DNA of 64,000 bases from a virus, in the IMG/VR virus record IMGVR_UViG_3300032235_000437, positions 16,447 to 80,446 of that record; one strand, 5' to 3'. Below, piece after piece: positions 48,658-59,849 of the stretch. Positions within the stretch are counted from its first letter, which is position 1. Each line of letters begins with the position of its first letter. The notes below the pieces were generated by a model. It saw nothing but the letters and a program-made list of their open reading frames with translations, did no database searches and was not told the DNA's origin. Made by a program: the position numbers and the translations under genes.

Positions 48658-49030
48658 GACGATATATCGCGTGTAAATGTTCCATCCAGTAATCGGATAG
48701 GCTATCTACTCGTGAAGTATTCCCCTCTTCTACGTGCAGCATTTTATTCGGTTTAATATATAATCCGAAGTGAATCAATAAGTTTGATTTCTTTGACTTG
48801 AAACTAATTAAATCATAATTCTTAGCATCCGTCAATGAAACTTTTTTACCATATTTAGATGCCCACTCGTCTAAGAATTCTACAGTATATTTTTTCATCC
48901 ATAATCTGGAATGAGGGTATGCAGGTAAATTGAAACTACAATCTAATTCATTTTCATAAAACTGTTGTACAAGAGTTACACAGTCATAGCTACCATAGCA
49001 ATGTTTAATACCTAGATAAGAAGTTATCAT
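48641..49030 (-). CDS. NlpC/P60 tail-tip protein (second copy)
   Basis: G..DC..LV..FY, H.G.Y....MLH, IYRH. Confidence 0.85.
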   Translation of the reverse strand: MITSYLGIKHCYGSYDCVTLVQQFYENELDCSFNLPAYPHSRLWMKKYTVEFLDEWASKYGKKVSLTDAKNYDLISFKSKKSNLLIHFGLYIKPNKMLHVEEGNTSRVDSLSDYWMEHLHAIYRHDKMV

Positions 49031-57174: not shown

Positions 57175-57545
57175 TTATTTTGCTCTCTTTGCTTTAGCTA
57201 AGCCTTCTTGCTCTTTTTGTTTTTGTCTGTAGTATTTGCCTAGTTCATCTTCGGCAACTTTTAATAGTTCGAATACCTCGCGCCTATCATCTATTTCATA
57301 TATATCCATTATAGCAGCTAATCCGCTATAATCTTTTCCCATCCAAGTACCGCTCATACCCTCCCACTTATCGGGTAGCACATTGAGTAGTATTAGAGCA
57401 TACTGAGCACTAGTATCTAGCGACGAAGCATCTATAGGCATCTCTTCTTCTGAAGGTTCCCAGCCCATTTGCTCACACATAGCTAGATATTGCTCGGTAG
57501 TAACACCTCCGCCATTTAATGTTTGGCGGAGGTAGTCTGTTAGTT
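57175..57545 (-). CDS. Tail assembly chaperone frameshift extension (gpGT-like T part)
   Basis: -1 frame from the slippery site reads LTDYLRQTLNGGGVTTEQYLA into MCEQMGWEP... without a stop. Confidence 0.85.
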
Positions 57546-57549
57546 TTTT
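57505..57549 (-). promoter_or_regulatory. Programmed -1 ribosomal frameshift signal
   Basis: A_AAA_AAC (57549-57543) right before TAA, 9-nt spacer, perfect 10-bp hairpin ACCTCCGCCA/TGGCGGAGGT. Confidence 0.88.
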
Positions 57550-57971
57550 ACAGTTTCTTCCTTTTTCTTAAGTGAGAACTGCTCAAAGTCATTTAGCGTA
57601 TCAGTAACAAACTGATCGAAGACTGGTGAATTTTTTAGTAGGTCAATAGCATCTTCTTCGCTAAAGTCTACAGCTTCTTCTGGGTTCATACCAGAAATGT
57701 CAACTGGAAGTAGCGAAGGTAGGTGTTTGATTTTAAGACCTGTCCAACCAGCAATTGCGCGCTCAGCGTAGTTCTCTAAGAACTTAGCGGTATCAACTTC
57801 TTCTTCGCGTTGGCGAGTGCGCTTGTTGAACTTATAGGTTAGACTAGCGTTGCGAATTTTTAATAGGTCTTCGCGTGACACAAAGCGTAGGTTAATTTTA
57901 AACCCAGCAATATCTGGGAATTCTACCCAGGTAGAAGTGTCTTTAACCATCATAGATTTTAGTTTACTCAT
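57540..57971 (-). CDS. Tail assembly chaperone (gpG-like)
   Basis: W.E.P...GF, ....I.GW.GL, between tube gene and tape measure. Confidence 0.85.
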   Translation of the reverse strand: MSKLKSMMVKDTSTWVEFPDIAGFKINLRFVSREDLLKIRNASLTYKFNKRTRQREEEVDTAKFLENYAERAIAGWTGLKIKHLPSLLPVDISGMNPEEAVDFSEEDAIDLLKNSPVFDQFVTDTLNDFEQFSLKKKEETVKN

Positions 57972-57992
57972 TAGATCCCTCTATATAAAAGT

Positions 57993-58103
57993 GAGCGTCC
58001 ATCGGGGAATCTGCTGAGCAAGGTGAGGGGAAACCTTGTTTCGCAAGCCGACAGACGCTCTCTGGTGTTAAATTTAGTTATTTCCCCTCAGAAATACTTA
58101 AAT
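57993..58103 (-). other. Structured intergenic RNA element with two complementary hairpin loops
   Basis: 13-bp stem with G-U pairs on - strand; inner loop complementary over 10 nt to an upstream hairpin loop region. Confidence 0.6.
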
Positions 58104-58106
58104 GTA

Positions 58107-59381
58107 TTACTTATCAGCAACAATTAGAACTTCACCGCCTTGACCTCTTGAAGCATTTGGTTCTTGAGCCATGAAGTTAACGCTTACCGCAAGTACATCT
58201 TCAACAACTACCTGTGGGAATTCAAATTGAACAGCAGGCATTGAGAATTGTACGAATGGAGCAGTTGTTCCACCGATATTTAGGTTTGCGTTAGAAGTTT
58301 GTGCAGAAGAAGTACGAGAATCTTGTGCAATATTTCTTAAGAACTGGCTAGACTGGCTATCGCCAGCACGTAGATACATAGTAGCAGAGCCTGTTACAGC
58401 GCGAGTACCAGTAAAGTTACCAATTGGTGAGTTTAGTGCAGTTAATTCTTCTGGAGTTAGGTAAGTAATGTTATTGTTATAATCAAATGTTAGTGATGTT
58501 ACTGGGAATGTATAAGTATTGCCTGCAACACCAGCCGCAGAAGCATGCTGGAAGCTGATAGAGCTAAGTCTGTTCTTAATGAAAGAGTTAGTTGCTATAG
58601 CGCCTGCTACGTTCATTTGGTTGTATGGGTGATAAGAAGCAGCAGCACTAAGCGCAAAAGCGTTAGAGTTAGCTACTACTGGAGTTCCACCAGCGTTTAG
58701 TACACCACCGAATACTGATACAGCGTTATTACGAGGTACGCCTGTAAGTTCTCTCATAGTAGTACCGTTACCAGTCCATGTTACTGTAGCGATTTCTTCA
58801 ATACCAGCGTCAACTGTAGCTTGGTTTACAGCAGCGTTAGATACTTGGTAAATAACGTTATCAAGCTTGAAGTATAGGTATTGATCTTCTTGAGCTACAG
58901 CAAAGTTAGAACGGCTGCTGTGTGAACCAGTTCCTGCAGCTACGTTTGTAGTTGCAAGTCTTCCGCCGGTTGCCCATACAGACTGTTCTGCGCTACCAGT
59001 AGATGCGCGAGTATTTGATACAAGCGCCTGCCACATGAACCAGTCAGCAAGAGGTTTAACGTTACCGCTTGGGCTAGTTGCTCCGCCAGTACCGCCAGCA
59101 GTAGCTCCTGTTTCTACGCCTGTAGGACGTAGGTAAACTTGGAAGTTCCACTCAACTGGGTTAATAGCTGTGTTAAAACGCTGTTGAGAGCGATCTGGGC
59201 TTAGACCGCTTTCTAAAGACGTAATGTCTTGTGTTGCTGAGGAAGCACTTACTGCAAAACCAGCTAATACTTCAAGTTTCCAAGTATTAGAAGGTGTCAT
59301 CGCTGTTACTGCTGCACCATTTAGCAGGTCAACAGTAGAAAAGAAAACCTCAGAGTTTCTTTGTAGATTAAGAGATGTCAT
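58107..59381 (-). CDS. Major tail tube protein (T5 pb6-like)
   Basis: L.RN...F.ST, DI...E.G..P.R...RFN...N..EW.F..Y..P, I.N.L, NNITYLTP..L, PIG.FTG...V.GS...YL. Confidence 0.92.
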   Translation of the reverse strand: MTSLNLQRNSEVFFSTVDLLNGAAVTAMTPSNTWKLEVLAGFAVSASSATQDITSLESGLSPDRSQQRFNTAINPVEWNFQVYLRPTGVETGATAGGTGGATSPSGNVKPLADWFMWQALVSNTRASTGSAEQSVWATGGRLATTNVAAGTGSHSSRSNFAVAQEDQYLYFKLDNVIYQVSNAAVNQATVDAGIEEIATVTWTGNGTTMRELTGVPRNNAVSVFGGVLNAGGTPVVANSNAFALSAAASYHPYNQMNVAGAIATNSFIKNRLSSISFQHASAAGVAGNTYTFPVTSLTFDYNNNITYLTPEELTALNSPIGNFTGTRAVTGSATMYLRAGDSQSSQFLRNIAQDSRTSSAQTSNANLNIGGTTAPFVQFSMPAVQFEFPQVVVEDVLAVSVNFMAQEPNASRGQGGEVLIVADK

Positions 59382-59393
59382 ATTTTATTCTCC

Positions 59394-59849
59394 TTAATAT
59401 TCTAGTCTATAGACTACTGATAATTCTAACTCTGCTATCCCATAAGGAAATGCCAAACCTTCGTCAGCCGAAATATTTTCTATAGTTATATCTAATATTC
59501 CTTTTTCAGGTTCATCCCCGATGTTATAGATGATATGTTCTATATCATCAACTAGATTGTCTGCTGCAGTTTGAGAATTATCTTCTCCATATACGTATGC
59601 TCTTATGATAACGTTTAATGTAGCTACCGTCAAATTTTCTGATTGAAAATTTCTAATTTCGGTTCCTGCTGATAGGTAAATAGATGGGAAGTCATTTACC
59701 TCATCTAAAAATTTAATTTTGCGATATACGTTATTAAAAACGTTGTGATTATATTGATACGAAGTATCGTAGGTGGAGATACCACCATTGATATTTTTTA
59801 AATTAGTAATTAAGAAATCTATAATCTCTGTACGTCTATTAAAAATCAT
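59394..59849 (-). CDS. Tail terminator protein (T5 p142-like)
   Basis: R..I, NV.R....DE..DFP....GTE, DEG...PYG..E; synteny. Confidence 0.82.
   Translation of the reverse strand: MIFNRRTEIIDFLITNLKNINGGISTYDTSYQYNHNVFNNVYRKIKFLDEVNDFPSIYLSAGTEIRNFQSENLTVATLNVIIRAYVYGEDNSQTAADNLVDDIEHIIYNIGDEPEKGILDITIENISADEGLAFPYGIAELELSVVYRLEY

Follow-up and report, generated by a model that had tools for sequence, protein, structure and literature searches.

The 135-nt gap between the tail tube gene and the tail assembly chaperone gene of an uncultured freshwater phage contains a structured RNA element that belongs to a new, undescribed family of cis-acting RNAs, absent from Rfam. The element is built of two hairpins, A and B, whose loops are complementary to each other. 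We consider it possible, at a little less than an even chance, that it acts in cis as a leaky intrinsic terminator and 3'-end stabiliser, which is tuned and compacted by a loop–loop kiss. In this way it would probably set the amount of tube protein relative to the later tail genes.

The element was studied in a 64,000-nt stretch of phage DNA (the window), taken from an IMG/VR virus record of 80 kb that is 71% complete. The tail operon of the window lies on the minus strand, and all parts of the element are described below in the mRNA sense. The operon includes, in this order, the tail terminator protein (59394–59849, −), the tail tube (major tail) gene of 424 aa (58107–59381, −; phrog_3575 major tail protein, E = 3.6e-46), the gap with the RNA element (58106–57972, −), the tail assembly chaperone gene of 143 aa (57540–57971, −; phrog_313, E = 1.5e-15), a second chaperone ORF of 101 aa (57175–57480, −; phrog_3914, from the ORF list and a profile match) and, downstream of the chaperone ORFs, a tape measure protein of 1822 aa. 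The tube gene has a canonical ribosome binding site (RBS), UAAGGAG, and ends with a TAA codon at 58109–58107; its product is about 27% identical to the tube proteins of Demerecviridae. As the first-pass annotation had suggested, the gap occupies the position of the T5 p140 gene: the T5-like phages Vibrio phi 3 and Pectobacterium My1 carry a p140-like 'base plate tail tube' gene and have no spacer.

Among the public sequencing runs, the phage was detected in DNA metagenomes from freshwater, rivers and other aquatic sources, and short contigs of its relatives were also found in a few possible RNA runs. No DNA match to the window was revealed among cultured phages. Similarly, no relative of the chaperone was found in bacterial genomes, which therefore gave no clue to a host or prophage.

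It should be mentioned that the two chaperone ORFs (143 aa, phrog_313, and 101 aa, phrog_3914; together 57175–57971, −) are separated by about 60 nt and do not overlap. The chaperone gene starts with AUGAGUAAA (57963–57971, −) in nearly all relatives, which places UGA and UAA stop codons in the other two frames, right where the gene begins; the window has, in addition, a UAA that shares bases with the chaperone AUG (UAAUG). Any ribosome that translated its way through the element would thus stop at the chaperone start, and these off-frame stops may be a simple consequence of the conserved Met-Ser-Lys.

Hairpin A begins 10 nt past the tube stop codon and is composed of the 5' arm UAUUUC (58096–58091), the loop UGAGGG (58090–58085) and the 3' arm GAAAUA (58084–58079). 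It has a local folding energy of −3.7 kcal/mol, or −5.8 kcal/mol in an extended form (58103–58072), and it is drawn in the local fold but not in the global minimum free energy (MFE) structure of the single window sequence. The loop and part of the 3' arm contain a Shine–Dalgarno (SD)-like motif, UGAGGGGAAA (58090–58081), the 5' partner of the loop–loop, or pseudoknot, helix. Hairpin A is followed by an A/U-rich single-stranded linker, ACUAAAUUUAACACCAGA (58078–58061), defined from the alignments, in which the motif CCAGA is conserved in the main clades.

Hairpin B is 68 nt long (58060–57993), folds at −31.1 kcal/mol and consists of three tiers split by internal loops. Its lower stem of 13 bp, GAGCGUCUGUCGG/CCGAUGGACGCUC (58060–58048/58005–57993), contains a single U-G pair and a single G-U pair, with GAGCG/CGCUC at its base. 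The middle stem is UUGC/GCAG (58046–58043/58014–58011), and the upper stem CAAGG/CCUUG (58038–58034/58023–58019) closes the C-rich apical loop UUUCCCCUCA (58033–58024). This anti-SD-like loop is the 3' partner of the loop–loop helix, and UGAGGGGAAA is its exact 10-nt complement. Past hairpin B there is a U-rich tract, AC UUUU AUAU (57992–57983), which is weak in the window, and then the chaperone RBS GAGGG (57981–57977), an atypical G-run SD, designated SD2, that resembles the motif of hairpin A. Both hairpins, with the stems, the loop and the positions proposed in the first-pass annotation, are thus present in the sequence, as is the exact complement of the B loop; the distance from the end of hairpin B to the chaperone ATG (57971), previously given as about 20 nt, measures 21 nt.

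A 156-nt region that includes the element folds at −44.2 kcal/mol (z = −3.1 against shuffled sequences), and the 10-bp A:B duplex has an energy of −15.7 kcal/mol when calculated for free strands. When the 135-nt gap was dinucleotide-shuffled 2000 times, 0.45% of the shuffles contained a perfect 10-nt inverted repeat, and the element is unlikely to have arisen by chance. An alternative pairing of UUUCUG, in the 5' arm of hairpin A, with the conserved CAGARA of the linker appears in the MFE structure of the window; it is kept in the relative L122 and is absent from the deep clade defined below.

To find relatives, we searched IMG/VR and metagenome contigs with the chaperone and tube proteins and obtained well over 150 loci, and parsing of each sequence gave 116 distinct versions of the element. 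They fall into three deep groups: the window clade, in which the loop motifs have four G and four C, a large clade designated '5G', and a deep clade that was reached through the relative L138 and whose tube proteins are about 57–60% identical to that of the window. Wherever the context was checked, the element was preceded by a tube gene (phrog_3575) and followed by a chaperone gene (phrog_313). In the relatives, hairpin A is located 4–14 nt past the tube stop codon, the end of the GAGGGG core lies 18–25 nt before the start of the hairpin B stem in most of the 116 versions, and the distance from the stem to the ATG is 17–36 nt. The chaperones of the relatives share 67–96% amino acid identity. 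In the first seven relatives the element was nearly invariant, while the flanking codons carried many synonymous changes. It is a single-copy element in each genome, including the 80-kb virus record, and no other copies were found in the genome. A loose pattern scan of IMG/VR gave mostly chance matches; both motifs were located in hairpin loops only in members of the family and at one further locus, L147, discussed below.

The secondary structure was examined with a covariance model built from the window clade, which was used to align first 44 and then 68 distinct sequences. In a raw MAFFT alignment the outer-stem arms of different clades were out of register, and RNAalifold therefore recovered the long-range A:B helix alone; this approach was replaced by the covariance-model alignment together with per-sequence parsing. 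An alignment of all three clades (A8) was too gappy and was left out of the pair counts.

In the 68-sequence alignment, 96% of the cells were occupied by standard pairs, as compared with 81% after shuffling of columns and 39–49% when the partners were slid by one to three columns. Compensatory changes were detected at all 13 pairs of the lower stem among these 68 sequences; among the 44 relatives they were found at 12 of the 13 pairs of the lower stem, four of the six pairs of hairpin A and four of the five pairs of the upper stem. The lower stem contained dozens of G-U or U-G cells and almost no A-C cells in the 68 sequences, which argues for a structure on the mRNA-sense strand and against an inverted repeat acting at the DNA level. 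The 68-sequence alignment was itself fitted to the model, and the per-sequence parsing served as an independent check: the lower stem had 13 bp in 86 of the 116 versions and 12–14 bp in 109 of them. In addition, a local hairpin A was predicted in nearly all of 72 distinct versions. Thus, the two hairpins are well supported, by covariation and folding, as structured RNA on the mRNA strand.

It should be mentioned that the nucleotides of the internal loops of hairpin B (58039–58047 and 58006–58018, −; C, GAAA/CUCA, AUUCC) are near-invariant in the two main clades, as is the linker motif CCAGA, and that the deep clade has other conserved motifs, UUAACAA/GUUGAAA, in their place.

The contact between the two loops is found throughout the family. 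Contiguous complementarity between A and B, of 6–14 bp with a mode of 11, was present in all 116 distinct versions, and the cores GAGGGG and CCCCUC were invariant in all three clades. For this reason the six or seven core pairs give no covariation, and the evidence for pairing comes from their flanks. The first pair on the 3' side of the G-run was G-C in 77, A-U in 22 and G-U in seven of 117 parsed sequences, and it was unpaired in 11; the column pair 19–89 of the 68-sequence alignment was G-C in 43, A-U in 19 and G-U in three sequences. A chaperone-gene tree shows at least three separate origins of the A-U state within G-C clades (in the window clade, in L051/L154 and in L113), and G-U intermediates were present in three further lineages. 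The second flanking pair also varies (A-U, G-C, C-G and G-U). In L295, a member of the deep clade, CUGAGGGGGCAA and UUGCCCCCUCAG form 12 perfect pairs. The G-run and the C-run vary in length in step with each other (4/4, 5/5 and 6/6), apart from exceptions that are compatible with wobble pairing. Finally, cognate flanks pair at 4.09 of eight positions, as compared with 3.70 ± 0.12 when flanks were shuffled among 43 haplotypes (z about 3). There is thus good support from sequence comparison for a real, conserved and partly covarying loop–loop pseudoknot contact. The extension of this helix uses the 3' arm of hairpin A, and hence two states are likely: a short kiss with hairpin A closed and a duplex of 10–12 bp with hairpin A open.

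Beyond the stem, the anatomy of hairpin B resembles that of an intrinsic terminator in most members of the family. At least four U were present in the first 8 nt past the stem in 106 of the 116 versions, and at least six U in 46 of them. The versions of the deep clade have GGGUG...CACCC followed by U5–7 directly abutting the stem, that is, textbook intrinsic terminator anatomy. In the window, the stem is followed by AC and then by UUUUAUAU, so that there is only UUUU, set 2 nt past the stem. A stable G/C-containing stem (13 bp; hairpin B, −31.1 kcal/mol) lies upstream of the putative release site. At the same time, intrinsic terminators usually have a compact hairpin with a short loop, and hairpin B departs from this pattern: it is 68 nt long and three-tiered, with two internal loops and an apical loop of 10 nt. 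A simple consensus terminator scan did not call hairpin B in the window, because its loop exceeds the limit of the tool. The U-tract has been lost in about 10 of the 116 versions (e.g., L289, L163, L105 and L172), in which the two hairpins and their loops are nevertheless retained; some function besides termination must therefore be conserved.

These comparisons also bear on what the first-pass annotation had made of the window. Its proposal of a cis-acting RNA on the mRNA strand agrees with the strong covariation, G-U pairs included, and the comparison of homologous intergenic regions that it recommended showed heavily covarying stems and conserved loop complementarity, the complement of the B loop being kept in all 116 versions with covarying flanking pairs. 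It had called the element undescribed, and indeed no match was found in Rfam at E ≤ 10 for the window or at E ≤ 1 for six relatives representing all clades, and no description of a similar element was found in the literature. The statement that a strong U-tract is lacking applies to the window and fails for those relatives that have U5–U7 directly past the stem. Among the roles it had listed, attenuation gains weight, since most relatives have a U-tract straight past the 13-bp stem.

From the structure, the strand and the gene context, we infer the following course of events. Hairpin B, with its 13-bp lower stem and U-tract, would act as a leaky terminator, and most transcripts would end just past the tube gene, whose product is needed in abundance; the terminated tube transcripts would keep a stable 3' hairpin. 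A fraction of the transcripts would continue into the chaperone, tape measure and distal tail genes. Such read-through would be needed for the chaperone and the genes downstream of it, as the 17–36 nt between the stem and the ATG are too short for a promoter. The CCCCUC of the B loop would pair with the GAGGGG displayed by hairpin A just past the tube stop codon. The pairing may begin as a loop–loop kiss and extend to 10–12 bp by opening the weak hairpin A, which would give a compact pseudoknotted fold where the linker of about 20 nt tethers the apex of hairpin B to the base of the same hairpin. On our physical argument, this tether would tune the speed and completeness with which the terminator zips up and in this way set the leak. 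The fold may also shield the A/U-rich linker, and in read-through transcripts it may keep the anti-SD-like loop off the GAGGG(G) RBS of the chaperone gene.

Besides the weak or missing U-tracts and the atypical hairpin B, one more feature of the family counts against this reading. The 6-nt loop cores stayed the same in all three deep clades, in contrast to the stems, each of which has turned over, and this suggests a sequence-specific constraint, which could come from the ribosome, from a protein or from the chaperone RBS; the invariance points to something more than a pure 'structural clamp'. A translational switch for the chaperone gene would supply such a constraint, and on the sequence evidence we regard it as rather unlikely, although it is the main rival and may also be a second layer of control. 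According to this explanation, the B loop would be a cis-acting anti-SD that masks the GAGGG(G) RBS and hairpin A a stronger decoy; ribosomes terminating on the tube gene would open or occlude hairpin A and thereby tie chaperone initiation to tube translation, by coupling or anti-coupling, with the terminator-like stem being secondary. That neither 6-nt core varies is consistent with SD/anti-SD mimicry, and the presence of a third copy of the motif, which the first-pass annotation did not mention, suggests that the C-rich loop may be contested and translation thereby controlled as well. SD2 was GAGGGG or AGGGGG in 84, GAGGG in 24 and of another type in eight of the 116 versions, whereas the tube gene had a UAAGGAG-type RBS in all 26 correctly anchored cases and GGGG in none, and AAGGAG predominates at the other genes of the window. 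Elsewhere on the mRNA strand of the 64 kb, GAGGGG and CCCCUC occur once each (at 48727 and 39987, respectively), neither of them beside a start codon. The decoy would also be the stronger partner: SD2:B pairing covers 5–7 positions and amounts to −10.0 kcal/mol in the window, as against −15.7 kcal/mol for A:B, and A:B spans 8–12 bp in most versions versus 6–7 bp for SD2:B. Moreover, hairpin A is always within reach of a terminating ribosome, and the members without a U-tract retain all three motifs. However, at least five contiguous base pairs between the loop and SD2, although possible in 112 of the 116 versions, show no covariation; the G-run of SD2 is usually one G shorter than the C-run, and the pairing never extends. 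The eight versions with another type of SD2, among them the divergent L138, L122 and L088, have an AAGGA-type RBS with little complementarity to the loop. GAGGGG itself pairs with the canonical 16S tail over 6–7 positions if wobble is allowed, and it may therefore be merely an SD variant. The geometry is demanding as well, since the loop stands at the tip of an arm of about 25 bp and SD2 lies 7–13 nt from the base of this arm in the main clade, which needs sharp bends. Both layers could be combined in a ribosome-sensing kissing-loop switch, with an SD-mimic hairpin in the footprint of the ribosome terminating on the tube gene, an anti-SD mimic at the tip of the terminator and the third GAGGGG as the chaperone RBS, where the rate of tube translation would set both read-through and chaperone initiation; we hold this more elaborate version to be unlikely.

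Two other explanations appear less probable again. Hairpin B could be a T7-type processing site at which RNase III or RNase E cuts and leaves a hairpin that stabilises the 3' end; alternatively, the 3' end produced by termination (hairpin A, the A/U linker and the terminator) could be released as a 3'-UTR-derived sRNA whose C-rich loop targets G-rich RBSs. The irregular three-tier hairpin of about 23 bp, with internal loops conserved within each clade, would suit a processing site; from clade to clade, however, the internal loops change and the apical loops stay constant, which argues against a conserved cleavage epitope. A hairpin, an A/U-rich stretch and a U-tailed terminator match the layout of Hfq-type sRNAs, and C-rich loops that pair with SD regions occur in sRNAs of the RsaE/RoxS type, but the window contains no other GAGGGG-type RBS as a target, and the C-rich loop would be masked by its complement in the same molecule. 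On balance, we judge a processing signal or trans-acting RNA quite improbable. The lowest probability, close to this one, goes to an operator at which a phage or host RNA-binding protein would recognise the GAGG loop of hairpin A, the C-rich loop of hairpin B or both (e.g., in autoregulation by a tail protein), the loop complementarity being secondary. It would account for the strict invariance of the loop cores in a family where all stems have changed and for unpaired nucleotides that are conserved within each clade. Nevertheless, a protein site does not predict the base-pair covariation seen next to the cores, a single protein is not expected to bind two complementary sequences, and no candidate protein was identified.

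Other identities were rejected. ARAGORN revealed no tRNA or tmRNA in the region 57800–58300. A conserved small ORF or leader-peptide attenuator disagrees with the finding that a frame is open across hairpin B in only 76 of the 116 versions; these open frames differ, more than half have no NTG start in a suitable position, and indels in the loop shift the frame. In two close relatives, L075 and L012, an ATG located 9 nt past the GAGGGG of hairpin A opens a 36-aa ORF that crosses hairpin B and ends in the chaperone start region; neither the window nor most relatives have this 36-codon ORF.

The leaky terminator with a kissing loop can be compared with several known systems. Rho-independent terminators and attenuators follow major structural genes of phages, for example T7 T-phi after gene 10 and the f1 terminator after gene VIII. 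The element shares with them a G/C-based stem followed, in most versions, by a U-tract directly past the most needed structural gene, and it would likewise make downstream expression depend on read-through and leave a protective 3' hairpin; it differs in its 68-nt three-tier hairpin, in the conserved upstream partner of the apical loop and in the U-tract, which is missing from about 10% of the versions and weak in the window. Control by loop pseudoknots is known from the repA/repZ pseudoknot of IncB and ColIb-P9 and from the kissing hairpins of the guanidine-II (mini-ykkC) riboswitch. As in repA/repZ, a hairpin loop pairs with a distant stretch near an RBS, and the termination site of an upstream ORF (repY in repY/repZ) adjoins one of the partners; as in mini-ykkC, two hairpins on a short linker kiss. 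Unlike these systems, the element has no evident antisense RNA or ligand pocket, its loops are fully complementary over 6–12 nt, the partner hairpin would be a terminator, and there is no similarity in sequence or in Rfam.

SD-sequestering expression platforms and the C-rich anti-SD loops carried by RsaE/RoxS-type sRNAs offer a further likeness, in that a CCCC loop is complementary to a G-rich RBS and a second G-rich copy can compete for it. In our case, by contrast, everything lies in cis on one mRNA, and pairing with the true RBS is short (5–7 bp) and lost in some members. T7-type RNase III processing hairpins also lie between phage genes and are similarly long, irregular and intercistronic, with internal loops, and here too the message upstream could be left with a 3' stem that stabilises it. 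The internal loops of the element, however, are not conserved between clades, and a U-tract and a kissing partner are foreign to the T7 sites.

A similar layout was revealed outside the family, in IMG/VR locus L147 (2900–2999, −; identical to L443 and related to L444), which has 66% G+C. On one side of it lies a 159-aa ORF and on the other a small ORF that precedes a DNA polymerase gene. A UGAGGGG hairpin lies 6 nt past the stop codon and is followed by a long hairpin with the apical loop UUUCCCCUCU, a U-tract and a GAGGG RBS; L444 keeps this layout with a compensatory change from C-G to U-A in the upper stem. The likeness, seen in two sequences only, could be due to homology, convergence or chance, and its occurrence between unrelated genes of a phage with 66% G+C hints that the device may be portable.

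A different conserved motif of about 60 nt, CUGAGGGGAGAGCUGUGCAAAGGAUUUUCCUAGCUUGCAGACGAGCAGUUUUCCCCUCACC, was found just upstream of an SD and a start codon in L102 (8970–9031, +) and also in L110, L117, L184 and L193, all from IMG/VR. In this motif, GAGGGGA and UCCCCUC close a long-range helix. No match was found in Rfam when L102 was searched, and the motif may be another uncatalogued leader RNA.

The late operons of tailed phages require hundreds of tube subunits and few copies of the chaperone and tape measure proteins, and the control of these ratios is known in detail for few model phages. The element described here constitutes a large RNA family, with more than 100 distinct sequences, that comes from widespread freshwater and marine phages and is positioned at the step between tube and chaperone expression. 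It replaces a gene, standing where T5-like phages carry a p140-like one. As such, it would provide a new entry for catalogues of RNA families and, if our reading is right, a compact natural terminator in which a kissing loop holds back the apex. Should the ribosome-sensing switch prove true, it would be a stoichiometry controller made of RNA and the ribosome only, operating with no protein or ligand. A real competition between GAGGGG, CCCCUC and the second GAGGGG would represent a protein-free link from the translation of one gene to the transcription and translation of the next, and it could be used as a part in synthetic biology.
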